Source of the DNA: an uncultured virus (IMG/VR IMGVR_UViG_2778261562_000001) | Taxonomy: Duplodnaviria; Heunggongvirae; Uroviricota; Caudoviricetes | Virus record (IMG/VR): IMGVR_UViG_2778261562_000001 | Direction: 5' to 3' (one strand) | Length of the DNA: 64,000 bases | Notes under the pieces: model-generated | Told to the model about the DNA's origin: nothing | Seen by the model: only the letters and a program-made list of their open reading frames with translations | Database searches by the model: none | Position numbers and translations under genes: made by a program | In this document: in pieces, positions 32,213 through 60,746 of the stretch | Layout of the letters: every line of letters starts with the position of its first letter | Position numbering within the stretch: the stretch's first letter is position 1

Positions 32213-32916
32213 ACCATTATAATTTTACACCTATAGACGAAATTCTAGCTGAACTTAATGTTGATTTTAATATTAATGATGCTGGTTTATTATCTCAAGT
32301 TCCTAGGCATGCAGCTAGAGCTATGCATCTTATGGAACTTGATGGTTATTTTCAACTTACGTTTTGTAAAAAGACTACTTATGAAGGTAGAGTTGAATTA
32401 CCTTGTACTAATAAGTATTTAGTACAAATTTTTAAACATGATGGAGATAATGTGTATAAGATAAACTTTGATAAAGGTTTAACTAGTCATAATACTTATT
32501 TAAGTATTCCTCATGCTCCTGACAAAGTTCGTCTTGATAAAAATTTTGTTATTACCGAAGATACTATTCCTACTACTTTTGGATTTGTTTATTACAGTAT
32601 GCCTTTAGATGATAACGGTATGCCTTTAATTCTTGATAATGAATTTGTAAAAGAAGCTTTACCTTATTTTATTATCTATAAATTAAGTTTAGGTGGATAT
32701 AAGCATCCTGTTATAGATTTAGAAACTGCTAATAATTTATGGGAAACTAAATCTCATAGAGCTAGAAATAATGTAAATTATCCTTCTATTGAAGATGCTA
32801 TTAAAATGACCCAAATGATGACTAATCCTTACTATGATAGGATTCTTAGTTATCTTCATCAAGGTGGTAATGATGGTGTTCCTTCTATGTTATCTAAAAC
32901 TCTATTAAACGTATGA
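32209..32916 (+). CDS. Tail tubular/ring protein
   Basis: GRVELPC, YYSMPLDDNGMPLILD motifs; directly precedes the muzzle gene. Confidence 0.7.
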   Translation: MNHYNFTPIDEILAELNVDFNINDAGLLSQVPRHAARAMHLMELDGYFQLTFCKKTTYEGRVELPCTNKYLVQIFKHDGDNVYKINFDKGLTSHNTYLSIPHAPDKVRLDKNFVITEDTIPTTFGFVYYSMPLDDNGMPLILDNEFVKEALPYFIIYKLSLGGYKHPVIDLETANNLWETKSHRARNNVNYPSIEDAIKMTQMMTNPYYDRILSYLHQGGNDGVPSMLSKTLLNV

Positions 32917-35900
32917 AAGACTTCGGTGAATTAGTAACTGATACTGCCTTAATAGATACTCCTAATGGTAGTTGGCCTTTTGCTCGTAATATACTTAAAT
33001 CTAAAAAGATTAAAAGTATTAGTAATGAGCATGGTTTTAAATTTAGGCATTTAGTACCGGGAAATGTTATAGGTCAAATAGAGACAAATGTTTCTGTTGT
33101 ATTCTTTAGTGTTACTTCTGATGGCTTTTCTGAAATAGGAAGAGTTAATGTTGATAATGCTGCACCTCAATACGTTAGAGAAATTAAGACTAAACTTTTT
33201 AATTTTAGTATTCATAACCCTATTGAAGGTATTTATATTTATAACTATAAAGGAGAGTTAACTATTGCTTTTTGTGATGGTGTTAATAGTACTTCTAATA
33301 GTCCTAAAGTTGTAAATCTTGATAATCCTAGTGTACAATTAAATGCTGCTAAAGATTTAATTAATCCCGAAGAATTTGATAAACTTAATTGGTTTCCTAA
33401 AGTAAAGGAAGCTAAAATAGATTTAACCTACTTAGAAGCTGGAAACATTGAAGGGTTTGCAGCTTTTGCTACTTATTGTTATGTCTATGATGATAATAGT
33501 ACTACTGCTTATTTTTCACCTACCACTTTAGCTTATCTAGGCTCTAGTGTAGACCCTGTAGATAAGAAAGGTATGAGATTAAAATTTACTAATCTTGATA
33601 CTAATTTTAAAGCTATTAAAGTTGCTTTAATTGTTAAAGATGAGGGTAATTTAGTAGGTTATGAAAGTTATGAGATTAACTATAGTGGAAGTACTTTAAC
33701 TTTTGATATTACTAGTTTAAGTAACTATTTAGATATATCTGTAGAAAATATCATATTATCTAAAATGATATTCGATAAGTTAGAATCTATTACTAAAGCT
33801 AATAATCAAGTTGTAGTTGGCAATTATACTGTACCTTCTAAACTTGATATTCAAAAGTATGTAAATAGACTTAGTATTAAACCTTATAAATATCTTGGAG
33901 AACAATCTCAAGACCCTAGTTTAATGCCTGGGGAAGTATATGCTCTTTATTTAGAAGTTCAACACCTTGACGGTACTTGGTCTNATGCTCATCATATTCC
34001 TAATAGAGAAGCTGAGAGTGGAGAAAGGGATTTAGTAGATACCNCATTTAATAATAAATATGGTACTAGTTGGGCTAGTGGTTATCGTAAATTTCATATA
34101 GAAAATAGAGGTGAAGTTTCTGCTAATGGACAGATAGCTAAAATGGGGTATTGGGAAAATGAAGAAACATATCCTAATATTAATGATTTTGATAGTAGAA
34201 CGGATTATAATGGTAGTTTCTTAGGTGGTAAAGATTTACGTAATAAACCTATTAGATACCATAGAATGCCTTCTATGAGAAATATGGCATCTATAGATTC
34301 TAATGTTTATACTGCTGATAGTAACAATTTAGATAACGAAAGATTCTATAAATTAGGTATTAAGGTTGAAAATTTTAATACTGCTTTTCCTATTTGGATA
34401 AGAAATAAAATTCAAGCTTATAGAATATCTTTTGTAAAACGTAGCTTTGGTAATAGTTATGTTGTAGGTAATTGGATAACTACTAGAAGAGGTTCACAAA
34501 ATTGGACACAAGCAGGTGTACCTCTTACTTATGAATACCATGATTTTAATCTAAACCCTAAAAGTGATGAACGACACTACGGTGCTTTAGATATTGATTT
34601 TTCTAAGATGAGAGTATTAAGTAATGAGCTATATAAGTTTAAACCTTCTGTAGATTTAACTTATTTAGAGACCAATTACTTATTTAACGTTAAAGAGACT
34701 AATGAAAGATTATATCCTTCTGATGCTGCTAGATTTGGAGAAATAAAACAAAATCTTAAATATAGAGCTGGAAACAATATTGCAGATAATACTCAATATT
34801 TAGAAGAAGGTATTAATCTTGATATGGAGAAATCACAGTATTTAAGTTTAAGTGGTAATGATGATTTTAGATTTTATGTTGGTAATGTTACTGTATTTAG
34901 TCATAAGACAAATTTGTATTCGGGTTTTAAAAGTAATGACTTAGTAGTTTTAGGTCGTAGTACTTCTATTAGTAAAAGTTTCACCCCTGTTAACACTGTT
35001 GACTTCTTTAAAGGGGGAGATGTTTTTGTATCTAATGAATTTGATATTAGAGTTCATACTGCTAAATTACATGAATATTCTAGTAGAGACGCTTTATGGA
35101 GATATGCTACTGATATTAAAATTAAAGGTGTATTTGGTGCTGTAAATAGTTCTAGATTATTTAATGATAAAAGTGCTGATTCTGACCCTAAAACTATTGG
35201 AGATAAAGATGAACCAGATAGAATAGACCCTGTATTTTTAAATTCTTTAGATTATACTTTTGAAGTTAAACATGAAGAAGATTTAAGTACTATTAATGAT
35301 ATTAATACTATTCTTACTGCTAATCTATTATCTGATACATTTATAACAGAATTTCCCTATAGAATACATAGAGGTGTTAAGATCCCTAAAGAATCGATTA
35401 GTTCGTATGCTTTAAGAACTTTTTTAACTGAAGATTATTATGAATGTGCAAATGATAAAGGAGAGCTTATAGCTGTTAGAGGTAGTGATAGAGCTATTTA
35501 TATTCAATATAGATTTGCTTTATTTGCTAGTGTTATTAAAGATAAACTTAAAACAGATGGTGCTGATACTTATTTAGGTACTCCTAATCTTTTTGATAGA
35601 GACCCTGAAGAAATTGAACCTGATGAAAAAGGTCATATTGGTAGTATATCTAAAATTTCTTGTAAAATTATAAGAGGTAACTATATTACTATTAATGCTG
35701 CTGTAGGTCAAATATTTATAGTAACAGGTCTTAAAGCTAATTTAATATCTGCTAATAAAAATAGAAACTGGTTCTATGAAAATTGGGATATTGGTTTAGA
35801 CTTTTATAAAATAGATGAACGTACAGGAGAAAAAAGAAGATTAGATAATCCTTACATTAGTATAGGTTATTGTATTGGGTACGATGAGAAGTACAATAGG

Positions 35901-36668
35901 CTTTTATTTACTAAAAAGTCTTATAAGTTTATTAGACAAGATTTAGAAGGCCCTGCTTTAAATTTTGATGGAGAGTTTTATTATCTTAATGGTAAACGTT
36001 TAGATTTTGATTCTGCTTATTTTGAAAACACTAGTGTAACTTTAAGTTATAGTTTAGATGATAATGCTTGGATATGTCAACATGATTATTTTCCTAGATT
36101 TTATTTCTATACTAATAGTAAGTTATATGCTGCTAATGGCGGTACACTTACTAATGACCCTAATAGTAATGTAGTTACTAATGTTTTTGAGACTAATGAT
36201 TTAGATACTGTTGGTAAGTATTTTGGTAAACGTTTTGAAAGTTATGTTGATATAGTTTTTAATAATGATACATCTATTACTAAAAACTTGCTTGCTTTAT
36301 CTTTTATTACTAGTTGTGGTACTAAGAATGCTTATTTGCAGCATAAACCTATATCCAAGGTTTTAATATATAGTGATACTCAATGCTCCGACATCATAGA
36401 GGTTGATTCTGACAACGTTTTTAGAACGATCAAAGGGGAGTATAGGTTAAACGATTTTAGAGACACCGTAATCAATCCTGATGCCGTTATTATCGACGAA
36501 AAGGGTAGGTTAAATACGTCGAACATCGATTCAAATAAATTGTGGTTTGAACGTAAAAATTTTAGTGGAAAATTCATTGTAGTTAGGCTAATTATGGATA
36601 ATTTAGATGATAATTCTTTCCACATACATGAAGTAAATACAATAAGTTCAATTAGTAATAGAAAGTGA
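32913..36668 (+). CDS. Tail stabilisation / muzzle protein
   Basis: 1251 aa, beta-rich, FARNI..ISNEHG start, GYDEKYNRLLFTK, TLSYS...WICQHDYFP; crAss synteny. Confidence 0.75.
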   Translation: MKDFGELVTDTALIDTPNGSWPFARNILKSKKIKSISNEHGFKFRHLVPGNVIGQIETNVSVVFFSVTSDGFSEIGRVNVDNAAPQYVREIKTKLFNFSIHNPIEGIYIYNYKGELTIAFCDGVNSTSNSPKVVNLDNPSVQLNAAKDLINPEEFDKLNWFPKVKEAKIDLTYLEAGNIEGFAAFATYCYVYDDNSTTAYFSPTTLAYLGSSVDPVDKKGMRLKFTNLDTNFKAIKVALIVKDEGNLVGYESYEINYSGSTLTFDITSLSNYLDISVENIILSKMIFDKLESITKANNQVVVGNYTVPSKLDIQKYVNRLSIKPYKYLGEQSQDPSLMPGEVYALYLEVQHLDGTWSXAHHIPNREAESGERDLVDTXFNNKYGTSWASGYRKFHIENRGEVSANGQIAKMGYWENEETYPNINDFDSRTDYNGSFLGGKDLRNKPIRYHRMPSMRNMASIDSNVYTADSNNLDNERFYKLGIKVENFNTAFPIWIRNKIQAYRISFVKRSFGNSYVVGNWITTRRGSQNWTQAGVPLTYEYHDFNLNPKSDERHYGALDIDFSKMRVLSNELYKFKPSVDLTYLETNYLFNVKETNERLYPSDAARFGEIKQNLKYRAGNNIADNTQYLEEGINLDMEKSQYLSLSGNDDFRFYVGNVTVFSHKTNLYSGFKSNDLVVLGRSTSISKSFTPVNTVDFFKGGDVFVSNEFDIRVHTAKLHEYSSRDALWRYATDIKIKGVFGAVNSSRLFNDKSADSDPKTIGDKDEPDRIDPVFLNSLDYTFEVKHEEDLSTINDINTILTANLLSDTFITEFPYRIHRGVKIPKESISSYALRTFLTEDYYECANDKGELIAVRGSDRAIYIQYRFALFASVIKDKLKTDGADTYLGTPNLFDRDPEEIEPDEKGHIGSISKISCKIIRGNYITINAAVGQIFIVTGLKANLISANKNRNWFYENWDIGLDFYKIDERTGEKRRLDNPYISIGYCIGYDEKYNRLLFTKKSYKFIRQDLEGPALNFDGEFYYLNGKRLDFDSAYFENTSVTLSYSLDDNAWICQHDYFPRFYFYTNSKLYAANGGTLTNDPNSNVVTNVFETNDLDTVGKYFGKRFESYVDIVFNNDTSITKNLLALSFITSCGTKNAYLQHKPISKVLIYSDTQCSDIIEVDSDNVFRTIKGEYRLNDFRDTVINPDAVIIDEKGRLNTSNIDSNKLWFERKNFSGKFIVVRLIMDNLDDNSFHIHEVNTISSISNRK

Positions 36669-36669
36669 T

Positions 36670-37956
36670 ATGAGAACTAAAAAACGTGTTAGAAGATATT
36701 TTGATGGTGGTAGTTTTGGTAATGACCTTCAAACTCTTACCAATACTGTTAATCAATCTTTAATTAGTTATGCTGCTCAACAAGATGCTAAAAAGCTTGC
36801 TGAAAGACAAAGATTGGAACAGGAAAGAGATATGCTAAATTCTACTAAGAGAAATGATACTGCTCTACTTAAAGATTATGAAACTGATGGTAGACTAGGT
36901 GCAGAATATTATATGGCCAATGGCGGAAAATTATCTACTCCTTCTTATTATTCTACTGGGGGAAAGCTTACTAGACTTTCCTCTGATACTGAACTAGTAG
37001 AAGGCAACACTCATGCAGAAGGGGGTGTTAAATTAAAGAAAGGAGGTGGAACAGCCCCCTTCGCAGAGGTTGAAGATGAAGAAGTTATTAAAGACGGTAA
37101 AAGAGTTTATAGCGATAGACTTAGAAGTTCTAACGGTAAAACTTTTGCTGAAAATGTAGAAGCACTTTCTACTGAAAAAGGAAAATTAGAAAAATTATCT
37201 ACTAAAGGAGATGCTATTTCCAGAGGTACTAATAAAAGACGTATAGAAATACTAGATGCTAAAGAAGATGCTTTTTATCAAGAGCAAGAGTCTTTAAAAA
37301 GTTCAGAGCCGACTATGGGTTATTACGATCTTGGTGGTGTACTCGATTCTGTATCTCCTTATGTAGATAATATTGCTAATGCTGTTCTTACATTAACTAC
37401 TCCTAAGTTAAGAAAACCTGTCACTATGAGACATAGTGAACTTAACACTAAGGTTAATGTAACTGACCAGCTTAACGATATTAATAAAGCTGTAGATAGT
37501 TCTGCTGACTTTATTATGAAGAATACTTCAAATAGTGCTAGTGCAAGAAATGCTATTGCTAAAACAAGACTTCAAGGTGCTGCTCAAAAAGCTAAAGTAA
37601 GAGCTTATAAAGAAAATGCAGAAACTCAACTTGAGAATGCTAATATCCGTAATAAGCAATTTGTAGATGCTAGAAATTCTGCTATATTGAATAGATTTAA
37701 TGACCAACAAACTGCTAGACAAGGTGCTATTCAAAGTAGAATATCTCAAAACTTCTCTAATTTAGCAGGTGATTATGTTGATAGAAGAAATTCTGAAAAC
37801 ATAAGAGATTATAACAATAAAAAACTTGCCATTGTTAAAAGTATGTATAAGAATGGTAGTGGAGTTGTTCAACGTGCTGACGATAATATCTTAAAAGAAC
37901 TTCTTAATATTACAGGTCAAAATAGTTACGCTTACGGTGGTGATTTGGGAAAGTAA
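36670..37956 (+). CDS. Virion cargo/ejection protein
   Basis: GNTHAEGGV, EVEDEEVI, YSDRL motifs and repeated aromatic-x-x-GG motifs; first gene after the muzzle. Confidence 0.65.
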   Translation: MRTKKRVRRYFDGGSFGNDLQTLTNTVNQSLISYAAQQDAKKLAERQRLEQERDMLNSTKRNDTALLKDYETDGRLGAEYYMANGGKLSTPSYYSTGGKLTRLSSDTELVEGNTHAEGGVKLKKGGGTAPFAEVEDEEVIKDGKRVYSDRLRSSNGKTFAENVEALSTEKGKLEKLSTKGDAISRGTNKRRIEILDAKEDAFYQEQESLKSSEPTMGYYDLGGVLDSVSPYVDNIANAVLTLTTPKLRKPVTMRHSELNTKVNVTDQLNDINKAVDSSADFIMKNTSNSASARNAIAKTRLQGAAQKAKVRAYKENAETQLENANIRNKQFVDARNSAILNRFNDQQTARQGAIQSRISQNFSNLAGDYVDRRNSENIRDYNNKKLAIVKSMYKNGSGVVQRADDNILKELLNITGQNSYAYGGDLGK

Positions 37957-37977
37957 GTGGAGGTAAAGGGGAACCTC
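37947..37977 (+). promoter_or_regulatory. Predicted programmed -1 ribosomal frameshift site
   Basis: In-frame G GGA AAG directly before TAA; the -1 frame is open into ORF 38031; GAGGT/ACCTC stem 6 nt downstream. Confidence 0.75.
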
Positions 37978-38030
37978 AAGAAACACCTAAACGTAAAGAA
38001 CCTGATGCAGAATTTATTACTGAAGATAGA

Positions 38031-38675
38031 ATGTTAGAAGGTATTGATAGAGTTTCTAAGTATTTAAATTCAGAAGGCTATTTAAAGCTATTAAAAAAGA
38101 ATTATTCAAATCCTAATAAAGTACAAAAAACTAGATTAAGAAATATAGAAAGAGTTCCTATTTATGATTCAGATGATATAAATGGAGGAGCTTATTATTC
38201 AAAACAACATCCTGACAATCCTGAAAATAGAATAGAACTTCCTAAGTATGGAAATAAGGATATTGTTGAACACGAATTTTTACATGCTGCTACAGATGGT
38301 CAATATGGTATGAGTAGTTTAGAAAGAGAAAGGATTTCTAAAAGACTTAAACCTGATTCAAATAGGTCTCATTATATAGAAGCAGGTTTAACTCCTTATT
38401 ACGAAAGACCTGAAGAGTTTCAAGCTAGATTAGGTGTTACTAGAATGTTATTACAAGAAAATGGTCTTTATGATTTTAATAAAGAAGAATTTACTAAAGA
38501 ACATTTAGATAAATTAAAATCTAGTATGAAAAATAATCCTGATAGATGGAATATTCAAGGATTATATGATGTATTAGATATGTCAAAGAGTGATGAAGAT
38601 TTAATTTGGTTAATGAATAATATTGCAGCTAATACCAAATCTAATAAAGCTAAAACAAGAACTTATTTAACTTAA
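38031..38675 (+). CDS. Zincin-like metalloprotease domain (probably expressed as a frameshift extension)
   Basis: HEFLH at 38271-38285 and downstream EEFQARL third-ligand motif. Confidence 0.7.
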   Translation: MLEGIDRVSKYLNSEGYLKLLKKNYSNPNKVQKTRLRNIERVPIYDSDDINGGAYYSKQHPDNPENRIELPKYGNKDIVEHEFLHAATDGQYGMSSLERERISKRLKPDSNRSHYIEAGLTPYYERPEEFQARLGVTRMLLQENGLYDFNKEEFTKEHLDKLKSSMKNNPDRWNIQGLYDVLDMSKSDEDLIWLMNNIAANTKSNKAKTRTYLT

Positions 38676-38679: not shown

Positions 38680-41265
38680 ATGTTTGGTGATTTAACATAC
38701 AATAATAAAGTAATAGCTCCTATTGGTGACCCTACCGAGGAGCTTGCTGCTTTATATAAGAAAAAAGACGAAGATTATAATTATGTAGTAGATACTACAA
38801 ATGCATTGGAAAATGCTTTAGCTAATTTCAAAAGTAGAGATATTGACAGACCTATAGTTGAACAAGCTAAAGATAAACTTCGTCAAACAGTTAAAGGTTT
38901 TACTGAACAAGGTGATTTAGAAAACAGAATTTTAGATACTAAACGTCTTGCTCAAGATATTACTAATAACTACGGTTTAAATGCTGTTAAAGAATCTTAT
39001 GAAAAACAGCAACAGTATGTTAATGAACTTAAAGAACGTGTAGGTAAAGATGCCAAAGATGGTGGTATATCTATGAAAGATTACAATCGTGCTTTACAGG
39101 ATATGATGATGAATCAAAAAGCTGTTAGTAAAGACGAGTTTGGTTCTTATATGCCTGAGAGTTACGGTAGAAGAGTTCTTAACAATTATAACTTCTCTGA
39201 TAGAATAGCTGAACGTTTAAAAGGATTTAAAGCTAATGAAACTCCTTTATATAAGAACGGTCAACTTATTGTTAGAGACCCTGGTGGTAGTGGTTATATG
39301 GTTAGTGGTACTCAAGAATCTGTTAGTGAAGAAGAACTTATTCATTATGCTAGTGCATCATTAATGAATGACCCTGATTTTATTGATAGAATTGATGAAG
39401 AACTCTATTATGAAACTAGAGACAAATTACGTTCTCCCGATGGAGAGAATAGGGAGTTAGATATAAATGACGTTACTAGAAGATTCAATCCTACTACTGT
39501 TAGTAGGTTTGTAAAAGAGAAGTACAATGAAGAAGATTTACAAAGTCTTGTAGACCAATATGGTGAAGGTGCTGTAAGTAATCGTTTATACCGTGATTTA
39601 CTTACTTACGAAATGACCAATAAAGCTATTGAATTTGGTGTAGGTAAAGAATCTTACGTTAAGTATAAAAATCAGTATCATAAAGATTGGAAGCTTCAAG
39701 ATGCTATGAAACAAGCTAGAGAAAAGACTGACGCTTTCAATAGTGGTCTTACTATGACTTATTATACTAAAGATAATTTGTCTACAGATGATATTACTAA
39801 AAGTGCTAAGGTCTTTTCAGATGCTAAGAAACGTGTAGAAACTCTTAAAGCTGAACAGAATAAAGTACGTGCTAATGGTGATATACAATCTGTTAAAAAT
39901 ATTCAAAATGAAATTGATAAAGCTACTAGAGAGATTAATATCTTACAATCTAAGAGTAAGTCTAAAATCTTCAATCAAGACGAAATTAGGAATCAAATTT
40001 CTAGTACTGTTAAAAACCTTAATAATGTTATTAGTCATGTTAGTGCCGGAAATCAAGCTCCTAAAATACAAGGTTTAGATATTAACGAAGGTGTATTAGA
40101 AGATTTAGTTATGGCTAGTTATGCAGGTGAAATAACTAATGAGGACACTTCTAAATATGTTAATATTGATAGAGATAAATTTATGTTAGAAATGGCTGCT
40201 GCTAGAATTAACCATCCTGGTGGTTATGATATTAGAGGACAGCAATTAGGTACATTTGGTGTAGCTGATAAAGCTGCTGCTATGAAAGCTATTCAAGAAC
40301 AAGATAGTGACGCTCTTTACAATAGTTTAACTCCTGAAGCTCAAAGAGAGCTTAATCAAAGGTATGATGTTCAAGTTAATCGTAGTGCTGGAGATTTAAG
40401 AAGAGCAGCTCAAACTATTGCTGCTAATATTAAAGACAAAGCAGAAAAAGGTGAATACACCTATAATTCTAATTACAGGGGATATATTGCTCCCGACATG
40501 AGTGCCGAAGAAAGACGTAATCATCCTATGGCTCAATTAGAGCATTTAACATCTTCTTGGATTGATAAAAATAAGAGTTACTATGATATGCTTTATAATC
40601 CATCTAATAAATTAGATGTTAAGACTATGATAGAAGAAGAGCATGGTGTTAGTGATGAAGATGGTGAAATCTTATGGGGAGAAGCTACTTTACAGCCATT
40701 AATTGATAGGATTCCTGATGAAAATGGAAACTATCATAATTCTATGATGTTACAAGTAGATATTAAAACAGGTGATAAAACTACTAAGAGTATAAGTGTT
40801 CCTGTTACTACAGAAGAACCTACTTATAATGCTAAAGCTAATGAAGCTTTATTTGTATTCCGTAATAATCTTGCAGCTAAAGGTGATAAGATTACTTATA
40901 ACGAACAACTCCAATTATCAGATGCAAATATGAATCTATTTAATATGACCGAAGAAGGTCGTATGATAGATTTAATGAATTTAAATGATATGGAAAATGG
41001 AGAAGTTAAAAGAATAGATTTACCTAATGGGAATAGCGGTCTTATAAAAGCATTTGATAAATCTTCACCTACAGGTATGACATTTTATTTAATGCATGAT
41101 AATGGTAATTATTGGGCTGAAGATTCTCAAGGTAACAAAGTTGCTGTTACTGAAGAAGAATTAGCTAGTAGAGAATATACTGCTTTAGGAGCAAATAATC
41201 TTCACGATTTAAAAATGAAGATAGCTAATATAGGTTATAATTCAGGAGCATTTACTAATAACTAA
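38680..41265 (+). CDS. Large helical virion cargo protein
   Basis: 861 aa, coiled-coil rich, between the first cargo gene and the RNAP gene. Confidence 0.6.
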   Translation: MFGDLTYNNKVIAPIGDPTEELAALYKKKDEDYNYVVDTTNALENALANFKSRDIDRPIVEQAKDKLRQTVKGFTEQGDLENRILDTKRLAQDITNNYGLNAVKESYEKQQQYVNELKERVGKDAKDGGISMKDYNRALQDMMMNQKAVSKDEFGSYMPESYGRRVLNNYNFSDRIAERLKGFKANETPLYKNGQLIVRDPGGSGYMVSGTQESVSEEELIHYASASLMNDPDFIDRIDEELYYETRDKLRSPDGENRELDINDVTRRFNPTTVSRFVKEKYNEEDLQSLVDQYGEGAVSNRLYRDLLTYEMTNKAIEFGVGKESYVKYKNQYHKDWKLQDAMKQAREKTDAFNSGLTMTYYTKDNLSTDDITKSAKVFSDAKKRVETLKAEQNKVRANGDIQSVKNIQNEIDKATREINILQSKSKSKIFNQDEIRNQISSTVKNLNNVISHVSAGNQAPKIQGLDINEGVLEDLVMASYAGEITNEDTSKYVNIDRDKFMLEMAAARINHPGGYDIRGQQLGTFGVADKAAAMKAIQEQDSDALYNSLTPEAQRELNQRYDVQVNRSAGDLRRAAQTIAANIKDKAEKGEYTYNSNYRGYIAPDMSAEERRNHPMAQLEHLTSSWIDKNKSYYDMLYNPSNKLDVKTMIEEEHGVSDEDGEILWGEATLQPLIDRIPDENGNYHNSMMLQVDIKTGDKTTKSISVPVTTEEPTYNAKANEALFVFRNNLAAKGDKITYNEQLQLSDANMNLFNMTEEGRMIDLMNLNDMENGEVKRIDLPNGNSGLIKAFDKSSPTGMTFYLMHDNGNYWAEDSQGNKVAVTEEELASREYTALGANNLHDLKMKIANIGYNSGAFTNN

Positions 41266-41269: not shown

Positions 41270-44200
41270 ATGAGGAACTTAGACATTAACAAACAAGCAG
41301 CACCTGATGGTAATATCTTTAAGAAAAAAGGTACTAACATTGGTGGGATTGTAAATCCTATTAAGGAAGATGCGTTTCTTGATACAGGAGAAACTAAATA
41401 TGTAAACACTCAAGAGTATAAAGATTATACTCAAACAAGTGGAAGAGGTGAAACTGCTTTTCCTTTTCAATCTGACTACAATCGTTCTAGGGCTTTAAAT
41501 CAATCTAATTGGGAACAATTTGGACATGCTACAGGTAGATTATTACCTAATACTGTTTTAGAAATTGTTAACCAAACTGCTAGTATATTAGATGTTGAAG
41601 ATTATTTTAATGCTGATAATGAAGTTGGTAACTGGTTAAGTACATGGGCCACTGAAGCTAAAGCTGCTGTAGATGAATCTATGCCTATTTATCAAGAAAA
41701 TCCGGGAGAAGCTTTACAAGTTGGAGATTTTGCTTGGTGGATGGAGAATGGTACTAATTTAGTACAAAGTGCATCTGCTTTTGCTGCTTTAGGTTATGCT
41801 ACAGGTGGTGCTAGTTTAGCAGGATTAACTAAAGGTGCTAAAGCTTTAAAATGGTTACAAACTTTAGGTAAAAGCTCTGCTATAGGTAATAAAGGTAAAC
41901 AAGCTGTTCAAGGTCTTAGTGCTTTATCTAATGCTGCTTTATTAAATCATGCTGAAGGTTATGGTATAGGTGTTCAAGTATTTAACGAAACTTATAATAA
42001 ATCTTTAGAACGTCTAGCTCAAGAAGGTGGATTAAGTCCTGAAGAAATGGATACTAAAGCTAGAGAAGAAGCTGCTGCTCGTGCTGAAAGTGCTATGAAT
42101 TTTAATAAGGTAAATATCTTATTAAACTTATCTAGTGCATCTTTATTTTTAAAAGCTCCTAAGCTTACTAGACAATCTTTAACTGCTCCTGCTTTAAGTA
42201 AAAGTTTTAAAAGAGCGGGTATTGAAGGTCTTCAAGAGTCTGCGGAAGAGTCTATTAACATGATTGCTGAAAATCAAGCAATGGATGATGAATATGACTT
42301 TAATACTGCTCTTAATGATGTATTTTCTAAGGAAGGTGCCGAAGCTGCTCTTCTTGGTTTTATCGGGGGTGCTGGACAGACTGGTTTAACATTGTCAGGT
42401 AGAGCATTACCTATATATAGGGATGCTAATGGTAATCGAGTATCTCAAAATGACCAATTGAGAATGCAAGTGGTTGACCAAGAGAAGGCTTTGCAGGATT
42501 GGGATGCAATGAGTAAGGCCGACAAATTTACGTCAGTCACAGACGCTTATTTGAACGCTGAACAGCATGCTAAAAAAATGCAAGAGTTTAGAGAAGCAGA
42601 AGCAAATAATGATACAGCTAAGATGGATAGTATTAAAAAAGATATGCTATTTAATCAAGCTTATAATGCTTTTAATACCGGTACTACTGAACAACTTTTA
42701 GAGGTGTTTCAAGGTATTAGTAAATTAACTCCTGAAGAAGCTGAAGCTAAAGGTTTAGACCCTAAGACTTATAAAAATCAAAGTTCTGATGCTATTAATC
42801 AGATAGAAACTTTAGAAGGTTTTTACAATGAAGCTTCTGCTTATAGAAATAGAGAAGAAGTCTTCTTTACTAAATCTCAATTAGAAAGTGTTAGAGAAAG
42901 AGCTGAGGACTTAAATAGGTTTAAACAAGACTTAGTTCGTATTCAAGAAAAAGAGTTTAATGATTTAGGATTAGACAGGTCTATTAGTTTCTTAGATAAA
43001 GATGGTAATATTGTAGAAAATGCTCAAGAAGATTCTAAAGGTAATATTAGAGGATTAAATGAGGTTAATTCTACTAGAGTAAAATCTTTACCTTCTTATA
43101 AAGCTTTACAATCTATTAATAATGCTATTGAAAATAACTCTGAAAGTAGAGGACAATTAGTTTCAAAGTTATCTCATATTACTTCTTCTGAATATCAAAA
43201 TCAACTTAGGGAAAATAGTAAAAGACGAAAAGTTAGAACTAAAGTAGAATCTAACGAAAATAAGTCTAAAGCTAAAAAAGCTGAAGAAAAAGCAGCTTCT
43301 AAAGCTAAAAAAGCTAACATGAAAAAAGAAGTAGCTCAAACTAAAGCTACTGAAAAAGTTAACACTCCTGAGAAACGTTTTGAAAAATTTGTTGAAGAAC
43401 AACAAAATAAACCTACTCCTAAAGAAACTCCTGTAGCTTCTACAACTAAAGCTGAAGCACCTTTGACTGTATCATTCAGTCCTAATAGAGGTGAAGCCAA
43501 TTCAGAAGGAGCTATTAATGGTATTTTTGAAAAGAGTATTAATGATATTCTTAAATCTAAAGCAAGTAACAGAGAGAAAGCTTCTCAATTAGAGAAAGCT
43601 TTTACTGGTTTTAAAGATAAAATAAATACAGGTATAACTTTTCCTGAAAGTACTGTAAATCAAATGAATTTACAGTTACCTAATATTATTACATCTTTGA
43701 AAGCTAGAGCAGATGAAGATGAAAGAGCTCAAGGTGCTGTAAATGCTGCTAAAGATAAGCTTAAAGAAAAGATAGGTGAATTAAGTGTAGAGTTACTTTC
43801 AGAAGAGCCTGTGTATTCAGATGATGCTGCTCCTTTAAATACTAATAAGGATAAGCAATTAAGGCAAACTGAAATGATGATTGACTTAATTGAAGCTGCT
43901 GATGCTGCTGGTATTGATACAGGTAATTTTAAAGAATTAGCTACTTATGTTAAAGAGATTTTAGGAGAATCTGATTTTTCTAGGATATATCCTAAATTTA
44001 AAGGTTTGTATATTCTAGCATCAGGTAAAGATGTAAATGAGAGTTATGAGACGTTATTTTTAAATCAAGATGAGAAAGCTGAAATATTAGTAGATGATGA
44101 AAAAATCGCTAATTCTGCTTTACCTATTGAGGTTTATAATATATTTGAAGGGGAAATACTAAAAGAATTAGAAGAACAACATAAGAAGTTTATTGCTAGT

Positions 44201-47200
44201 CAAGGTTATTCCTTCTATAAAAATGATTCGTTAGATTTAAGAGGTACTACATGGGAAGAAGGTCATAACCTTATTGCTCATTTAGATATGAAATATAGAA
44301 GGGCCGTTGATGTAGCTACTACAGATAAATTTAATGTTCTTAATTTTAACTTATCTAAACAAGATTTAGATAATAAGTTAAATGAGAACTATGATTCTGC
44401 TATGCTTGATTATAATGAAATTAATGAAGGTAGTGAAGTAACTTTTATTCCATTAGACCAAGTTGTTTATGAAGATGGAAGTATAGCTAGAGCAGATGGT
44501 AGTATAGAGCGTAATGGTGAGGTTACTAAAGGTTCTCCTTTATACAATGCTCCTATTGGTATGATGTATCAAGGTAGAATTGTTAGTGGAGCATTTTTAC
44601 ATTTACCTGACTGGATTAATGCTGATAACCTTAGAGGTGAAAATCTTGCAGAACAGAAACAAGCTCTTATTAAGTATAGACAAAAAATATTAAACTCTCC
44701 TGAAGGTGTTACTACTAGAATTTCTAGAAGAACAGATGGTATTCCTTTAGTAGATAAAGACGGTATTAAGAATAAGACTTCTGAAACAATGGCAGAGGCT
44801 AATATCGCTATTGGTAGAGATAAACAATTCTATACTGATAGTGAGAGTACCGTAGATATAAAGAATTACGAAGCTTATGATGGTAGGGTTTATGCTACTT
44901 TCCCTGTAAATAAAGGGGTGGAGTTCGCAACACCTTTGCAAATGCAGCCATTATCTGAAAATCAAGAGATAGTTGACACTATTAAAAATGCTGTTGAGTT
45001 ATATCTAAATAACAACGCTAATGATTCTAAAGTTAATAGAATTAGAAGTGAAATGGGATTAGATATTACTACTCTTGATGGTCTTAAAAGTTTCTTATCT
45101 AAATTTATCTATGTTGACGGTAGAAGACTTAATAAAGCTACTTTTGAAGATTATGTAAATTCTCTTGAAGATGATAAGCCTATCATTCAGATTACTGACT
45201 ACACCATTAACTTCGGTATCGGGGGAAACTGGGGTAACACTATTACTGTTCTTGATAGGAATAGAATCAATAATACTAATGTTGGTAGGGATGAACGTTC
45301 TTTTATGGTTAAAGACGTTTTAACTAAACTTGAAAAAACTTTAAAAAGAAACATGACGCTTAATGCTGATATGGCTTCTTTAAATGAAAGTTTTAAACTT
45401 CCTACTATTGGTGAACAAGTTACCTTTAAATCTTATAACAATTATAATGATTTTGTTAAAGAACATAGTTATACTTCTAATTATAGTGTAACATTGGATA
45501 ATGGTACTGTTATTTATACAGTACAGCCTAGTTTGTTCTTTGAAATGAATACTATACCTAATATCAAAACTACTGAAGCACCTTCAGAAACTTACGATAA
45601 TTTAGATGAAGAAGATGATTTAGGTATAGAGGAAGATTTGTTAGGAGATTTTGCTCCTAGAGTTCTTACAGAAGGTCAAGAAGAAGCTTTCAATCTTACT
45701 GCTCCTGATAATCTTATTATAGAAGGTGTACCTATCGGTTTACAAGAGGTTATTGCACAGCATGTAAGTAGCATGATTGTTGATAAATATTTAAAAGGAG
45801 ATAAGAATGCTTTTAAATATCTTTACGATTTTAAAGATAGGTTAAGTAAAGATGGTTATGAAAAGAATCCTAATGGTACTGATAAACTGTCTTATTTAAC
45901 TAAAGCTAAACTTCAATTTGAAAAGACTGGTGATAAGAAATATCGTAAGAATATTGAAATTACTCAAGCTGTTATCGATAATTATCCTATACTAGCTCAA
46001 AGAGCAATTGAGAAGTTACAGACTTTAAATAATCTTAAATTTGAAGGTAACGTACTTCAAGTTATTTATGATGAAATTGAAGAAGGTATTGAAACTTTTC
46101 AAGAAGAAGATACTCAAGTAGAGATTTTTGGTAATACTATTGAGTTAGAAGAAGAGGTTATTAATAGAGAGACTTGGAGTTCTGATGCTGTATTTGCTGA
46201 AGACCCTAGAAGTAAGATTAGTATTAAAGTTAAAAATTTACTATCTACTATTAGAGATGTTAATCCTGACACTATTGAAAATACTACACAGGTTTATGGT
46301 ATGGAGAAAATCCTTCCTTTAGATACTGTAGTTAATGATGTTACTTCTGTTTTAGCTTATAACAACTTCACATCTGAAAAAGTATCTGAACCTTCTTTAG
46401 ATGTTATGCTGCAACTTTTAGAGGACGAGAGCATTAGAAAACCTTATTTCAAGAATGTAATCGAGACTTTGAAAAACGCTGATAAACAAGCTCAAAATCA
46501 ATTTGTGAGAGTGATGAGTAAACACTACACCCATCATAAATACGGTTTTAAAATGGGTAATAAAATTGTTTTCAGAAATAGTGATACTAATGGTGTTAAT
46601 AATGTTATTCAAAATAAATGGTTATCTGGTTTATATGCTTCTGATTTAGTAGTTGTAAAAGATAATATAGCTACTATAGATGCCGATGCTTTAGCTAAAG
46701 CAAATGAAATTCGTAATACTATAGTAGAAGAATTAGAAGGAACTTCTCCTGATTATAATAAAGTATCTAAGTTTTTTAATAGTCTAGGTTTAGATATTGA
46801 TTCTAAATTAGCAAAAACTATTAATACTGATGGAGTTATTATTAATAAAAGACGTCAAGTACTTACCAATGTTTTAGATGATAGTGATGGATTTTTAAAT
46901 GTTTATTTAAAGAACTTAAAAGGTTTAGTAGGTAAAGATTTAGAAGAAAATCACCCATTTGAAGATGTAGGAGTTGTAAATGAATTTGCTAGAGGTATAG
47001 CTAGATTGTCTCCTAATTATTATATTAATTCATTTAAAGATGTTAGAGGTAGAACTTATTATGGTTATTCTAATAATAAATTCTTAGTTGATAGATTTAA
47101 GGAATTAAAAACTGATTCTGTTCTTTTAGATGAATTAAGTAAACAACCATTTTCTAAAAACTCATTATTATTAGAACGTCTTAAAAATCCTAATAACCAT

Positions 47201-50200
47201 AAGTATTTTAACTATTATACTATTGATGGTTATAGTTCTATAGGTAGAAAAGGTAGAAAATTTGAAAATCTATCTCCTGCTGAACAAGAAGAATTTAAGA
47301 TTAGTTTATTTTTATCACAGAGTAAATACTCTACTAATAAAAGGTATATAGTTAATACTTTATATCCTACTACTTCAGATAAATCTGTTATGTATGGTTA
47401 TAGTAGTCTAGGTATTGATTTTACAAATGGAGTTGTTAAAGGTCAATTAACTAGACCTTATCTTAAAGCTTTATTTGAAAGAACTGTACAATCTGAAGTA
47501 GATAGAATTTTAGCTTATCAACTTAATCCTGATAAGTATAACTATGCAGGTACTAATATAGGTGCAGGAATGTTTATTTTATTTCCTGAATTAAATACTA
47601 TTAATGAGCTTTGGCATATTGAAAACGGTCAAAGACAGTTAAAAGATTTAAATACTGACATTAGACTTAAAAATTTAGCTATTGATAAATTTGGAGAATT
47701 TGTTAAGACTTTAACTGATGATAAGATTCAAGCATGGAAAAACTTTGGATTTACTGAAGTAGTTCAAGATTTTGGATGGGATGAGACTAGAGGTAATTAT
47801 GTTATTAATAGAACTATTCTTAAATATGCTAGAAAAAATAAGGTAGAAGATACTAAACCTTTAAGTGCTGAAGCTTATAACTATGTAGCTAACTATCTTA
47901 TGGCTAATATGAATATGTATCAACTATTCATAACTGACCCTGCTCATTATTTTAAATCTAAACAGTTTAAAGAGGTTTTAAATAAACTTGAAAAAAGTAA
48001 TCCTGAAGCTTTTGAAGATATTAGTACTATTGAAGATAGTAAACTTCAGAGACAAGCTTTATTAGAGTATTATACAGAGTCAGATTTTATTCAAGAACAT
48101 AACGATACTTTTGATAATATTGGTAAACGTTTAGCTGCTGATGTTGCTCCCGGTACTGATATTCCAGAAGGTCATAAAAGTTATTTTAATATTTATCATG
48201 CTAGTGATATAATTGAATCTTCTGATTTTTATAAAGAGTATGAAAAGATTCTTAAAGATAAAGCTAAAGATTATCAAAGAATCAATGTAGCTGATGCTCA
48301 GGAATATACTACTTTAGAAGAACATCTCAATATTATGGAGATGAATGGTGATATATCTGCTAATGATAAAAGTAGATTATTAAGAGCTGAAGAACTTGAT
48401 AAATTATCTGAAGACGATTTACAATTAGTACTACAACCTATGAAACCACGTTATGTTTATAACAAGTGGAAAAACGGTGTTGAGCGTAGGATTTATATTA
48501 AATCTTCTAGTTTTCCTTTAATTAAACAATTAACTAAAGGACTAAGAATAGACGATTTAAGAAAAGACATGATAGATAAATCTATTGATAGAATTGTCTT
48601 TGATAGTGCTTTAAAAGTAGGTGGACTTGAATCTCCTGCTCCTTTATTTCTTGAAGGTAATTTTGTAGGATTACAAGAATCTGCTATGATGAAAGGTCTT
48701 AGTAGAACAGGTATGAAAATACAGCAGGAAATTCCTACTAAAGATAAATCTACTATTACTAACCCTACACAGTTAGTTGCTCTTATTACTTCTCAAGTAC
48801 GTAATGAGGATGGATTTGAATACTCTGGTCGTTCTTATAAAGGGGAAGCCATAAGTGATATGATTAACGATTATTACTTAGACCTTTACAAAAGAAAATA
48901 TACAGACCTATTAAAAGAATTGGATTTCAATCCTATTGATAGTACTATTAAAATTGATAAAATACAACGTATTTTAAAAGATGAAGGAGTAGCAAGAGGA
49001 TGGTCTTTATATGACCTTAAAGCTCTTGATATAAATGAAAATGATTTTACTGTACCTCTGTGGCAAACAGGTGTTAGTAGTAAAATCGAAAGTATGCTTA
49101 ACTCTATTGTAGATAATAGAATTAGGAAACATAAACCTAGAGGACAATCTTATGTATTAGGTTCTGAAGCTGGTATGGAAATTAAAGAACAAACTAGTGA
49201 AGATTCTGTTACTAAATTAGGTGTTGTTTATGATAATGACTGGTTGAAGAATAGCGGAGGTAAGTTACGTCCTATGCGTGTTACTGATGGTGTAGTTCAA
49301 CCTGCTGAAGTTTTTGCTCCTTTTAAATTCTTTGATAATGCAGGTAATAAGCTTAAATTAAAAGAGTTTACTGCTCCTGACGGAACTATAGATATTTCCA
49401 AGCTTCCTGACGAACTTTTGACCTCTCTAGGATTTCGTATTCCAACCCAAGGGTTAAAGTCGATGGCGTATATCAAAATTGTGGGGTTTTTGCCCGAAGC
49501 ATCCGGCGACCTTTTGATTGCTCCTAAAGAATTTATTGTTCAAATGGGTAGTGATTTCGATATTGATAAGCTTTATGCACTTACTTACAATAGTTCTTAT
49601 GTAGATGGTAAACTTTCTAAATATATTAAAAGCCCTAAAGAAGATGGAGATAGTATTAAAGAAATTGATAATGAATTGTTAGATTTATATCTAAGTGTTC
49701 TTAAAAACCCATCTAGTAAAGTTCAAAAAAGAATTTTAACTCCTTTAGAGTTTGGTAGATTACCTGAATTGGGTAATGAAATTTACGACCAAGTTAAGAA
49801 AGCTAATAAAGGTATTGGTTTAAGTGAAGAGTATCAATTATATAAGTATAACAATGCAAGAGCTGGTAAAGCAGGTATTGGTGTATTTAGTAATGATATG
49901 AGACTTATGGCTACTCTTGTAGGTAGTGGTGTAGAAATGGTTACTAGTAAAGGTAATCAATTTAAATTTAAAATTGGAGATAATTCATCTGTACCTTTAC
50001 ATCAGGATACTACTAATACTGGAAAGTTACTTAAAACAGAGGTTATAGAGTATTTCCAATCGTTAAGTGTTGATAACGAAAATGAGCAAGGTTTACATAA
50101 ACTTAATATTAATAATCATACTTTTGATGCTATTAGAGCTTTAGCTCTTAATGGTTTTGAAGAAGATGTTATTAGTTATGTTATTAACCAACCTATTATT

Positions 50201-53200
50201 AGAGAGTATGTAAGACTTAAAAAACTTGCAGAAGATTCTCTTACTGATTTTAATATTTATCAAATAAACGAAACTTTAATAAGTCAATTTCCTGTAGAGG
50301 GTGAAGTTGATACTGATTTGTATTTGGAAATTAGTACAGAAGAATTAAGAAATAATATTTCTGAACCTAATAATGAAGTACAACAGCAAGTATTAAACTT
50401 GTTTCAATTTTTGACTGGTAAAGGTAAAGAGTTACAACAGATTCAATCTAGTTTAAATACCTTTAATGCAGGTATAGGTAAAAACTTGTTTTATTCTTTA
50501 GCTAAAGAAAAGCAATTTAGAGAGATAAGTTATCTTAATGGTTATACTAATTTAGAGAAGCTTATAGGTAACTTTATTGAACTAAATTTAGCTAGTACAG
50601 AATCTAGTCCATTTAGAGAACAATGGGAGCAAGCTGTGACCGATGGTACGCAAAAAGCGTTCTTATCCGAATTAATTGAAGGTGGTTATGTTCTTTTAGA
50701 AAGTCCTATCAACATGGTTGATGGTAAGCCTAAATATAAGAACAATATCAAGCTTATAGAGCCTACTACCATTATTGGAGCATCTACTGCTTATGCTACT
50801 ATATTTAACAATATTCTATGGAAAGATTTTTTCCCCTATAGAAATGCTAAAGTGTTACATGCAGTCGATAGTTTGAAAGCCATTTATGGAATCAAAGGTA
50901 CAGGTGTAGCAGAAGAAGCTGAACTTACTCAAAGTACTTTTAGATATTTAAAGAGTTTTATTAGTTCAGGTAGTGCAGAAGTTATTACTGATGGTAGTAT
51001 TGAAGAGGAAAGAGCACGTTTATTTATAGATACTGAAGATAATCAATCTTTAGCAACTATAGTAAAAGACGTTATGGAAAAAGGTCTAATTAACAATATA
51101 TTTATGGATAGATTGGAATTAGATATTAGGAAAGAAGTATTACCTAGTACTATTAAGTTTAGAGCAAATGTAGCTGAAAATATAGATGAAAAAGCTTTAT
51201 ATACTGCTTTTTATTCTATGTTTACTAATGATAGAGGGTTAGGTAAATATAACGGTATAGATTATACTGTTAAAAGTTTAGCTCAAGATTTAGTAACAGC
51301 ACAGTTGTTAGCAGGTGGTATTCAAGGTGCTAATCAATTTATTAAGTATATTCCTATAAACTATTTAAATGCTTTAGGTTTCTATAATGAAAACAATAAA
51401 CGTATTAAGGATTTCCAAGTCAACCAATTGATTGAACAAAGTTTCCAACATAATCCTAATTTAGTTTATAGTAGACTAGTAGAAAGGGATATAAAAGATG
51501 GAGAAGCAACACTTAATGGTAATATTATTAAATATATAAATGATTCTGATGAAGATATTAGAAGCAGTTATATAAGTTTACCTGATAATAATAAAATCAA
51601 AAGATTTAGATTATTTAAGTATAATTTTGATTCTAAAGAATATTATGAAATTAGTACTTTAGGAAACAAAGATTTCTTAGAATATTCTTATGATACAGAA
51701 AACGCTACATCTATTATTCCTGATAATAATCCTAATATTCAATATGTTTTACCTAGTGTAGAAGATTTGAATTTAGATAAAGGTGAAGATACTTCTAGTG
51801 AAGTGATTGCTCCTAAAGAAACTTCTATATTTAAAAAGTATGATGTTAAGCAAGGAGATGTTAAGTCTATATCTAATGTTTTAGAAATTATTGCTGAGAC
51901 TAGTAGAACACCTGCTAATAAAGTATTAGCACAAACTCTATTAGAGCATAGCAATAAGATAGCTGATTACAGTTTAGTAATTGCTCCGTTCTCTCCTTTT
52001 AAAGGGAATCATAGTTACAATGATAAAGCTATCTATTTAAATCCTAATGAACTTGAAACTGAAAAAGAGTTTGAAGAGATTTACTTAGAAGAAGTTATTC
52101 ATGCTTATACTAAAAAAGCTATTGTAGAGAATAAGAATGGTGAGATTAACCGTCTTAAAGGTTTTAGAAGTAAAGCTAAAGAAGCTGTTATTGCTTATTT
52201 GAAGAAAGAGAATCCTGATATGTCAGATTTTGAGATTGAAGGTAAATTCGTTGTTCTTGATAGTAAAATTAAAAATGGCAGACCTTTAACTTCAGAAGAA
52301 GCTAATATCTTATATCCTTTATATAATGATGAGGAATTTGTAGGTAGATTATTTAAGTCTAAAAAATTACAGGAAATTTTAAATGATGTAGAAGTAGAGG
52401 ATAAAAGTCTATGGGATAGTATTAAAGATTTTATTAAAGATATTCTTAATTCATTAGGTATGAATATTAAGAAAGGCTCTTTATTAGAGTATTCTATGTT
52501 AGAATCTATTAGTTTAATAAAATCTGAACCATCTGATGCAGTTAAGCAAGAGTTGAAAGATGTTAACCCTAAGATACGTACTCTTGAATGGGTTAAACAA
52601 ACTTATAACATTGAAAATGCTTCTGAAGAAGACTTACCTAATATAGTTAAAAGTATTAATGAAAACATTAGTAATGTTGAAGCTACTTTAACTAAAGAAG
52701 GATTAAGTCTTAAATTCAGAAAAGATTTTGCACCTACGGTAGAAAGAGCAGGTAAGAGAGGTTCTTATAAAGAGCATATTGATAGAAGGATGAAAGACCT
52801 TAATTCTACTATTAATAAATTAGAAGCACAAAATAAATATGATGAAGCTACTAAATATAAAATAGAATTATATGACCTCGAAACTAGGTTTCCTGCTATT
52901 CTATCTTCTAATACTCTTACAGCCCTTCTTGCACAAGGCTTACAAGACTTACAGAGGATTGAAGAAATTTTTGAAAGGAATGTAACTGTTACTGATGCTG
53001 TTCTTATTAAGGAGATTACAGATTATTGGAGTAACTTAGATACTTTGTTATTTGAAGAAGATGATTTATCTAGTTCTGTAATACCTGAATTTAGACAATT
53101 AGAAAACAGAGCTAAAAGACTTGCTAAACAACTTCATAGATATGAAGAAAAGCATGCTGAAGATTTGATGAAAAAGTATGGTGACTTTACTACTGTAAAG

Positions 53201-59760: not shown

Positions 59761-60746
59761 TACTTTTTAATTAAACGACTATCTTTTTTATTTTCTCCAA
59801 TAAACATTTTACGATACTGTGTAAATCCTCTAAAGTTACCTGACCAACCATCTAAACTTTCTATACGGTCAGCAGCATAACTACAGTTATTTAAATCTTC
59901 TTCATCAAGGATATAATATTCTTCACTATCCATAGCTCTAGCACAGTGTTCAAAAGGAGACCAATGACCCATAGAAGCTAATCTATCATGAAGTTTTATA
60001 TCTGCTTCAAAATCATTAGTACCATCAAAATTCATGTAAGATACTCTAGCACATCTAGCAGTAGCTACTTTAATTAAAGAATCTTCTACTGCTGCTTTAA
60101 CTGCTATTTCATTATATCTATCAGGATTTCCATTACTATCATCATAATAAAGAGATAAAGCTTCTTCTAAATCATCGCCAAATGGTATATGCCATTCCCC
60201 CTGTGATAAAGAAACTGGTGTAGATGCGTTAGCTGCATCTAACATACATTCAGCAAGTTTAGCTATATGTATTTCAGCTTGAGGATGATGCCTTAAAGCA
60301 TAAAAGTTTTCCCATTCAGTAGCAGTAGTAATAGCAGTATGCCAACCCCAAGGTTCTAATAATCTATTACAGATTTGTTTAGTAACCTTATTATTACGGT
60401 TAAGCATAATAGCTTCTTCTAGTACAGATGTTCTAGCTCTTAACCAACTACTAACAGCTAAATCATGGTTTCTACCTTCTAAATACTTAGTACCCTGCAT
60501 ACCTTTATGGTCTTCTTGAAACCTTATAGGGACAAAAGGGTCATTTTGCACTTTTTCAAACATCTTTTTAAAAGGTATAGCTCTACTACTAGCACTATTC
60601 TTACTAAGCATTCTATGAGTATTAAACTCAGCAAGAACTATTCTAGGAAACGTAATTACAAAAGTAGTTATACGATTACCTCTAACATCTTTAGAATCTG
60701 CTATAATAGTAGCATTAATCTCATTGTACTTGTGGTTTTCTAACAT
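59760..60746 (-). CDS. thyX: FAD-dependent thymidylate synthase (phage-type ThyX)
   Basis: EFNTHRMLSKNSASSRAIP, KQICNRLLEP, LRHHPQA, ARCARVSY, HWSPFEH. Confidence 0.85.
   Translation of the reverse strand: MLENHKYNEINATIIADSKDVRGNRITTFVITFPRIVLAEFNTHRMLSKNSASSRAIPFKKMFEKVQNDPFVPIRFQEDHKGMQGTKYLEGRNHDLAVSSWLRARTSVLEEAIMLNRNNKVTKQICNRLLEPWGWHTAITTATEWENFYALRHHPQAEIHIAKLAECMLDAANASTPVSLSQGEWHIPFGDDLEEALSLYYDDSNGNPDRYNEIAVKAAVEDSLIKVATARCARVSYMNFDGTNDFEADIKLHDRLASMGHWSPFEHCARAMDSEEYYILDEEDLNNCSYAADRIESLDGWSGNFRGFTQYRKMFIGENKKDSRLIKK

Follow-up and report, generated by a model that had tools for sequence, protein, structure and literature searches.

The window analysed here is the whole 64,000-nucleotide stretch of an uncultured Caudoviricetes virus (IMG/VR record IMGVR_UViG_2778261562_000001), and the element in question is the junction between two of its plus-strand genes. 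The upstream gene (36670..37956, ending in TAA) was identified as an open reading frame (ORF), by its 15 homologues and by its position, and encodes a 428-residue putative virion cargo (ejection) protein. The downstream ORF (38031..38675, 214 residues from its first ATG) encodes a zincin-like HExxH domain, with HEFLH at 38271–38285 and an invariant Glu at 38415–38417. Gene callers annotate the locus as two unrelated genes and a gap of 74 nucleotides, which extends from the stop of the cargo ORF to ATG 38031. With modest confidence, a −1 ribosomal frameshift is taken here as the best explanation of the junction.

The 3′ end of the cargo ORF reads GAT TTG GGA AAG TAA, with the TAA at 37954–37956. 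The slippery heptamer G GGA AAG (37947..37953, plus strand) stands in X XXY YYZ phase with this ORF, (37947 − 36670) mod 3 being 2, and the stop follows it directly. The −1 frame is open from 37944 to 38675 (terminal stop 38673–38675), bounded upstream by TGA 37941–37943. The two frames overlap in 13 nucleotides only, and the heptamer lies inside this overlap. From 37953 the −1 frame reads VSGGKGEPQETPKRKEPDAEFITEDR and continues into ATG 38031 and the HEFLH ORF. The predicted fusion comprises 428 + 240 = 668 residues, the 240 codons (37953 to 38672) encoding the conserved domain. An earlier sequence-only reading of this DNA had proposed such a fusion; the position and phase of the heptamer, the end of the cargo gene, the stop-free −1 frame and its join with the HEFLH ORF at 38031 were all confirmed, and its product sizes (428 and about 668 residues) were correct. 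A 5-base-pair hairpin (37960..37977, plus strand) starts 6 nucleotides past the heptamer, GAGGT (37960–37964) pairing with ACCTC (37973–37977) around a loop of 8 nucleotides.

The last three sense codons of the cargo gene are all minority codons in the window (TTG, 7.7% of Leu; GGA, 27% of Gly; AAG, 24% of Lys), and their joint use for Leu-Gly-Lys is expected at ~0.5%. Among the 90 Gly-Lys dipeptides encoded by the 47 window ORFs the spelling G GGA AAR occurs three times, two of them in the cargo gene. GGGAAAG was counted five times in the window against 5.3 expected and is not enriched, and in-phase XXXYYYZ sites number 128 in the 20,549 codons of the 47 ORFs. On the minus strand, the gene pair 61657..62427 and 60740..61657 is a chance look-alike of the junction layout: T TTA AAC lies four codons before the upstream stop and the −1 frame continues into the following gene, which starts at an ATG of its own and shares one base with the first. 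Heptamer and frame match alone are therefore weak evidence.

Other ways of passing or bypassing the stop were tried and rejected. Readthrough of the TAA would stay in the zero frame, which is open for 26 codons after the stop and ends at TAG 38032–38034, outside the domain frame; this opening (37957–38034) is probably a by-product of the codon composition of the −1 frame. A GTG directly past the stop is likewise in the zero frame and not in that of the domain, which excludes re-initiation there. GGAGGT was rejected as a ribosome-binding site, given that no start codon follows it and that the phage has no such sites; since Shine-Dalgarno use is absent and the window holds no tRNA gene, GGAGG in the linker is left explained by Gly-Gly codons alone. 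Transcriptional slippage was rejected on the length of the runs, which is just three bases. There is no hint of a changed genetic code, because TAA is the stop in 36 of the 47 ORFs and a tRNA gene search of the window found none.

An assembly or sequencing artefact at the homopolymer run was also considered, given that 66 N in the window mark it as a consensus of imperfect data. None of these N lies in 36670–38675, and a separately deposited contig of 4607 nucleotides (L006) is identical to the window in 4607 of 4607 bases. The stretch occurs in marine metagenome runs that date from 2014–2016 and belong to two studies; of the eight runs with strong matches, five may be source samples. Of four runs examined, X8 (37506–38085) and X6 (37945–38109) gave Logan contigs, from two studies and different years, that span the site or the linker and contain no indel there. 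The single change in them, G37970A, falls in the hairpin loop and, read in the −1 frame, affects the final base of a Gly codon and is synonymous. A cargo protein from another contig, different in one residue (P0002), ends at the same stop. Contigs hide rare alleles; an artefact is nevertheless largely refuted and scarcely credible.

The linker and the HExxH domain

The linker (37953..38030, plus strand) consists of 26 codons in the −1 frame without ATG, GTG or TTG, the last 9–12 of which are part of the predicted fold of the domain. In all, 29 open codons upstream of ATG 38031 lack these three triplets, the joint highest value of the 47 ORFs; one further ORF, at the window edge, also has 29, and it is followed by ORFs with 22 and 17. 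The GC content of the gap (39%) is the highest of 16 gaps (range 4–35%), one of which (2617–3624) is not a true spacer. By codon position in the −1 frame, G or C occupies 17/26, 12/26 and 1/26 positions of the linker, against fractions of 0.45, 0.35 and 0.15 in the window genes; at the linker's own GC content the probability of one or fewer in 26 is 5.7e-5. Three-base periodicity is strong in the −1 frame of the linker and absent from eight true spacers. This evidence from the spacer does not depend on the way in which the junction was selected.

The predicted fold of the domain likewise begins upstream of Met30, the residue of the −1 ORF encoded by ATG 38031. A profile of the family from which the window was left out starts to align at residue 18, 12 residues before Met30. 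An AlphaFold2 (AF2) model of the −1 ORF based on 15 sequences had a predicted local distance difference test score (pLDDT) of 83 and a predicted template-modelling score of 0.81, with a strand at residues 22–24 and helix 1 starting at residue 27; the pLDDT is 93 over residues 21–30, and residues 1–20 are of low confidence. PDAEFI in the window linker corresponds to PDQEFI in P0015 and GDSEFV in P0017, a D-x-E-F motif shared with the nearest homologues. The BLAST alignment with g070 of phi14:2, a Cellulophaga phage (Crassvirales, Steigviridae) and the best named relative of the HExxH domain, extends into the linker (GEPQETPKRK versus GGPVDPPSKKR). Coding signature and fold together reach 9–26 codons upstream of ATG 38031, yet a start at Met30 is within the family range: from 189 domain instances (taken from up to 150 homologues listed), the 52 copies within 80 residues of a protein N-terminus have 1–76 residues (median 28) before an invariant Tyr, the lowest values including fragments, and a Met30 start would leave 10.

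The domain (residues 71–206) matched positions 617–735 of the 739 in PHROG 24249, 'tail protein', with an E-value (E) of 7.5e-32, that is, the C-terminal end of the profile, and its identity with the C-terminal domain of phi14:2 g070 is 42–44% (E 2e-53). HEFLH corresponds to residues 110–114 of the −1 ORF; in 15 sequences Glu111, His114 and Glu158 are invariant and His110 is nearly so. The motif and a Glu as third ligand are what defines a zincin of the gluzincin type, and the AF2 model places helices at 107–116 and 156–172. In a wide fold search 11 chains had Z scores of at least 5 (top 7.1, none at 8 or above), all of them metallopeptidases or metal hydrolases; they include PepO, Zmp1, neprilysin, PPEP-2 and ECE-1, with M13, M34, M1 and M4 peptidases at Z 7.1–5. 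A Foldseek search with the domain model had no match at E ≤ 0.001, the best being the zinc peptidase 4l7a (E 0.085), and a profile search of the PDB with the domain returned IrrE only (E 0.35). A Pfam search at E ≤ 5 had no match, and the domain is thus without a curated peptidase family. The term 'zincin' used in the sequence-only reading is supported by the conserved motif, the invariant Glu and the fold matches.

The domain is widespread, with 223 cluster representatives at E ≤ 0.001. A search of 5.8 billion proteins with it returned only P0014 and P0015. P0015 is encoded on a 34-kb contig. Over the last 132 residues of the domain P0014 (142 residues, on a contig of 1394 nucleotides) shows 99% identity, and in place of the HExxH region it has an unrelated 10-residue N-terminus; a chimeric contig or recombination may account for this.

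The 428-residue protein and relatives of both parts

The 15 homologues of the 428-residue protein have lengths of 419–1238 residues; one of them, P0003, from a 4.7-kb contig, is 56% identical. The window protein starts with MRTKKRVRRYFDGG and ends with YAYGGDLGK. A Pfam search with it had no match, and crAss_CARG1 (PF25725) at E ≤ 1 matched neither it nor its 11 relatives. In hhalign, a motif at residues 108–151 aligned weakly with the crAss_CARG1 region of phi14:2 g070 (E 0.071, probability 0.8). The AF2 model (pLDDT 66) has a small β domain at 94–147, helices of up to ~105 residues and a tail (415–428) predicted to be disordered, as expected of a linker; a fold search with this model returned coiled-coil or BAR-like noise only (best E 0.23). 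The gene lies directly after the muzzle-like gene and before the giant virion proteins, which is the position of crassvirus cargo protein 1. The label 'cargo' is used because of this position, the weak CARG1 motif and the crAss001 model; the earlier assignment as a cargo protein draws on position and a weak motif match and finds no counterpart in Pfam.

The HExxH domain was found in 52 of the 53 loci fetched, the exception being L005. At 40 of the 52 it is part of ORFs of at least 500 residues, often in several copies, and at 12 it lies in ORFs of fewer than 500. When 30 of the large ORFs were scanned, five had a phage tail lysozyme domain and two (in L019 and L028) had crAss_CARG1 just before the HExxH domain. 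In phi14:2 g070, a record annotated from virion tandem mass spectrometry, crAss_CARG1 (by Pfam) and the HExxH domain are in one frame. A cargo-1-type virion protein that ends, in a single frame, with an HExxH domain is thus an arrangement met repeatedly, in g070, L019 and L028. The earlier suggestion of a maturation protease found no specific support; the fusions with tail lysozymes in relatives point to an ejected enzyme acting on the envelope.

Searches for further relatives of the junction were made with both parts. Of the 48 loci that came from a metagenome scan, one was identical and the others were at 35% identity or less except in short local segments. In IMG/VR, the domain retrieved two loci (28–29% identity) and the cargo alignment one locus (L005); P0015 and P0003 retrieved no loci. 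Species genomes had no matches to cargo alignment A4 or domain alignment A5, the wider alignments A1 and A2 having been rejected as too variable.

Two motifs recur at module boundaries. GGWLDKYQNGG is internal in P0017, MGWL(D/E)KYQDGG is N-terminal in L024:2506-2560 and L037:2035-2090, and an ending in GGWLDKYN is C-terminal in P0017 and P0048. The second motif, GG(K/R)ILRSKVKKMQPGG, is repeated in P0026 and P0029, which are multi-domain HExxH proteins. Such boundary motifs may be packaging or cleavage signals, and the basic-GG motifs that flank modules possibly mark cut sites used after packaging or ejection. The L019 locus (L019:1768-5072), on a marine contig, has a first ORF of 534 residues with a transglycosylase-like N-terminus (by eye; no Pfam match), crAss_CARG1 and HExxH, and a second ORF of 572 residues that overlaps it by 13 nucleotides and has weak similarity (E 2e-9) to the family of the window's 428-residue protein; compared with the window, the two parts thus stand in reverse order.

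Readings of the junction

On the frameshift reading, a minority of the ribosomes that decode G GGA AAG at the end of the cargo gene would slip back by one base, the P-site tRNA-Gly then pairing with GGG instead of GGA and the A-site tRNA-Lys with AAA instead of AAG. The slipped ribosomes would miss the TAA and read on through the flexible 26-codon linker into the zincin-like domain, giving a major protein of 428 residues and a minor one of 668 residues with a C-terminal enzyme. Because the cargo part would supply the targeting to the particle, packaging and ejection would include a small number of copies that bear the enzyme. Slippage and its rate, the presence of either protein in the virion, and the activity and substrate of the enzyme are all matters that we infer. 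A true frameshift would account for a coding linker that lacks start codons, for the position of the domain boundary, for the rare codons, and for catalytic residues and a junction that have both stayed intact; it would also make sense of the place of the domain directly after a cargo gene, since in other phages it is carried by cargo proteins. The fusion proposed in the sequence-only reading is the best supported of the readings and the likeliest, on account of the coding signature of the linker, the domain boundary and the rare codons, yet it is unproven, and our confidence in it is modest.

Several observations weigh against a frameshift. The stem that the sequence-only reading had pointed out is present but not significant: the hairpin has a folding energy of −6.4 kcal/mol, 70 of 200 shuffled sequences fold equally well, and the 87-nucleotide region has a z score of +0.64, so that the hairpin is probably no specific stimulator. 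In lambda G/GT, slippage is not known to need a strong RNA structure. An Rfam search for a frameshift element found none, the sole row being a chance snoRNA match (E 0.07). GGGAAAG recurs in phase within the cargo gene, at codon 97 (36960–36966), where the −1 frame closes after two codons; a slip there would therefore give a truncated product of ~100 residues. The RNA run X10 gave one contig of 189 nucleotides (37272–37460), away from the junction. The DNA relatives found are either identical or near-identical copies, or at most 50% identical and without this junction (metagenome loci at most 35%). The nearest syntenic relative, L005, has muzzle, cargo, 934-residue and giant genes in order, without a domain gene. 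The closest homologue of the domain, P0015 (48–50% identical), is a stand-alone protein with an N-terminus of its own, MGWMDKYQNGG, and N-termini of this type are true starts in L024 and L037.

Some of these points, and others, speak for two separate genes, the domain being made only as the 214-residue protein from ATG 38031; the start-less stretch would then be the leftover of a longer protein and the heptamer a coincidence. The sequence upstream of ATG 38031 is AT-rich and free of Shine-Dalgarno sites, like that of the other 46 starts of the phage, and gaps of 80–107 nucleotides are found elsewhere in the window. Stand-alone family members exist (the 12 of 52 loci with shorter ORFs), and full-length members have as few as 3 (P0101) or 13 (P0049) residues before the invariant Tyr, the segment being variable. 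The HExxH profile matched none of the 15 cargo-family proteins, all of which end near the same point, in-phase heptamers are frequent, and the look-alike pair on the minus strand reproduces the layout by chance. Against this, Met30 is not conserved in the family alignment, and a start there would drop the confidently predicted strand, the first helical turn and the D-x-E-F motif of the nearest relatives. It would also give a protein with neither the basic-GG leader of the stand-alone homologues nor a cargo-1 domain. The coding signature in third-position GC runs across the whole linker back to the slip site, whereas an untranslated remnant would lose it with time. We regard two separate genes as rather unlikely, about half as probable as a frameshift.

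The linker signature fits a recent event equally well, namely a fixed frameshift mutation in which a one-frame ancestor was split by loss of a base in the G/A runs, the long form no longer being usefully made and the domain being either silent or translated from ATG 38031 instead. Indels arise preferentially in homopolymer runs like TTTGGGAAAG, one added A would give a continuous frame whose product is identical to that of the −1 slip, and one-frame fusions of the domain with cargo-1 proteins exist. The intact allele, however, was seen in no contig of the four runs or in L006 (with the reservation about rare variants given above), no fused cargo relative was found, and the 243 codons that follow are undamaged and keep every catalytic residue. 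A deletion would leave unexplained a canonical in-phase XXX before the A run together with the rare TTG. The site is, moreover, intrinsically shifty in other systems, as described in PMC9965538, so some long form would still be made. Such a mutation is improbable, more so than two separate genes.

If ribosomal frameshifting does occur here, the set of ejected proteins holds a hidden enzyme-bearing isoform, and recoding sets the number of enzyme copies per particle. This would matter for the way in which crAss-type phages, with a large ejected protein cargo and no long tail, breach the envelope or disarm the host, and would add internal cargo to the capsid and chaperone genes whose long forms are made by frameshifting. 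A broader proposal, which we put forward quite tentatively, is that marine crAss-like phages have, where the cargo gene ends, a slippery site of the lambda type that works as a dosing device, by which few of the ejected copies bear an enzyme, and that the domain behind it occupies an exchangeable slot, filled by a zincin here. The 'swappable payload' of the sequence-only reading is in line with the missing domain in L005 and with the shuffling of the domain among many virion proteins, both indirect; among the relatives, none was seen with the same slot and another payload.

Known systems and gene neighbourhood

The frameshift device is known from lambda G/GT, T7 10A/10B and the kuravirus capsid GGGAAAG; its setting in a putative crassvirus cargo gene would be new. 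In lambda G/GT (Xu, Hendrix and Duda, 2004, as cited in PMC9965538) the −1 slip at GGGAAAG occurs at ~3.5% according to PMC9965538. As in the window, the heptamer lies near the end of the upstream gene and the minor long form contains the whole short form at its N-terminus. The lambda forms, however, are assembly chaperones of a long tail and remain outside the virion, whereas the short form in the window is a putative ejected cargo protein and its extension an enzyme domain; the lambda arrangement is conserved across relatives, whereas the window junction is known from identical or near-identical copies only. Lambda is long-tailed, and the window phage is a crAss phage of the tail-less (podovirus-like) type.

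The sequence-only reading had described GGGAAAG as known from the tail chaperones of long-tailed phages, which holds for lambda and is incomplete, since the heptamer is also reported for a podovirus capsid gene. In kuraviruses (phiEco32-like podoviruses) GGGAAAG lies near the natural stop of the capsid gene and in YF01 extends a 353-residue protein to an isoform of 892 residues, according to PMC9965538, which also gives a slip of ~10% for the related case of gene 10 (10A/10B) in T3/T7. The use of GGGAAAG in a structural gene of a podovirus is therefore already in print. From that account, the kuravirus case resembles the window in its podovirus structural gene, identical heptamer beside the natural stop, −1 frame and large C-terminal extension made in a minority; it differs in that the carrier is the major capsid protein with the extension on the capsid surface, whereas in the window the carrier would be an internal cargo protein and the extension a putative metallopeptidase.

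Within the Crassvirales, phi14:2 g070 (593 residues, 'tail protein') shares with the window the C-terminal HExxH domain and the place after a muzzle-like gene. It differs in having one continuous frame and two HExxH domains, and its N-terminal part is similar to the 428-residue protein just at the level of a motif. C1 (gp45) of crAss001 is, like the window's cargo gene, encoded directly after the muzzle gene, and cargo is stored in tail and capsid (PMC10172136). The words 'frameshift' and 'protease' occur zero times in the main text of that paper, and homology of C1 to the window protein was not established by profile search. A literature search covering titles and abstracts, and in part main texts, found no report of frameshifting in crassvirus cargo genes.

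The window has a GC content of 31%, and its genes are packed tightly on one strand. Upstream regions of the gene starts are AT-rich and without Shine-Dalgarno sites, as expected for a phage of Bacteroidota, which would make the host presumably a member of that phylum. The gene order around the junction is 32913..36668 (muzzle-like), 36670..37956, 38031..38675, 38680..41265 and 41270..56125. The first of these (32913..36668, plus strand) encodes a muzzle-like tail protein of 1251 residues that matched PHROG 15100, a virion structural protein, at E 7e-16 and Pfam crAss_MUZ_C at E 0.0046, below the cut-off; the next gene therefore sits at the cargo-1 position. The last is a single ORF of 4951 residues and occupies the place of several RNA-polymerase-associated cargo genes of crAss001.

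A second hidden frameshift, after the giant gene, was considered and rejected, the ORF there being an HNH homing endonuclease with its own ATG. This gene (56149–56718) follows the giant gene directly and matched NUMOD4 (E 1e-16), HNH_3 (E 5e-9) and, weakly, AP2; its two candidate ATG starts stem from a tandem duplication of ~16 nucleotides around 56164–56195. The N positions of the window are scattered and clustered (e.g. 1116–1364, 5277–5955 and 9338–9720), and may be polymorphic or low-quality positions of the consensus.

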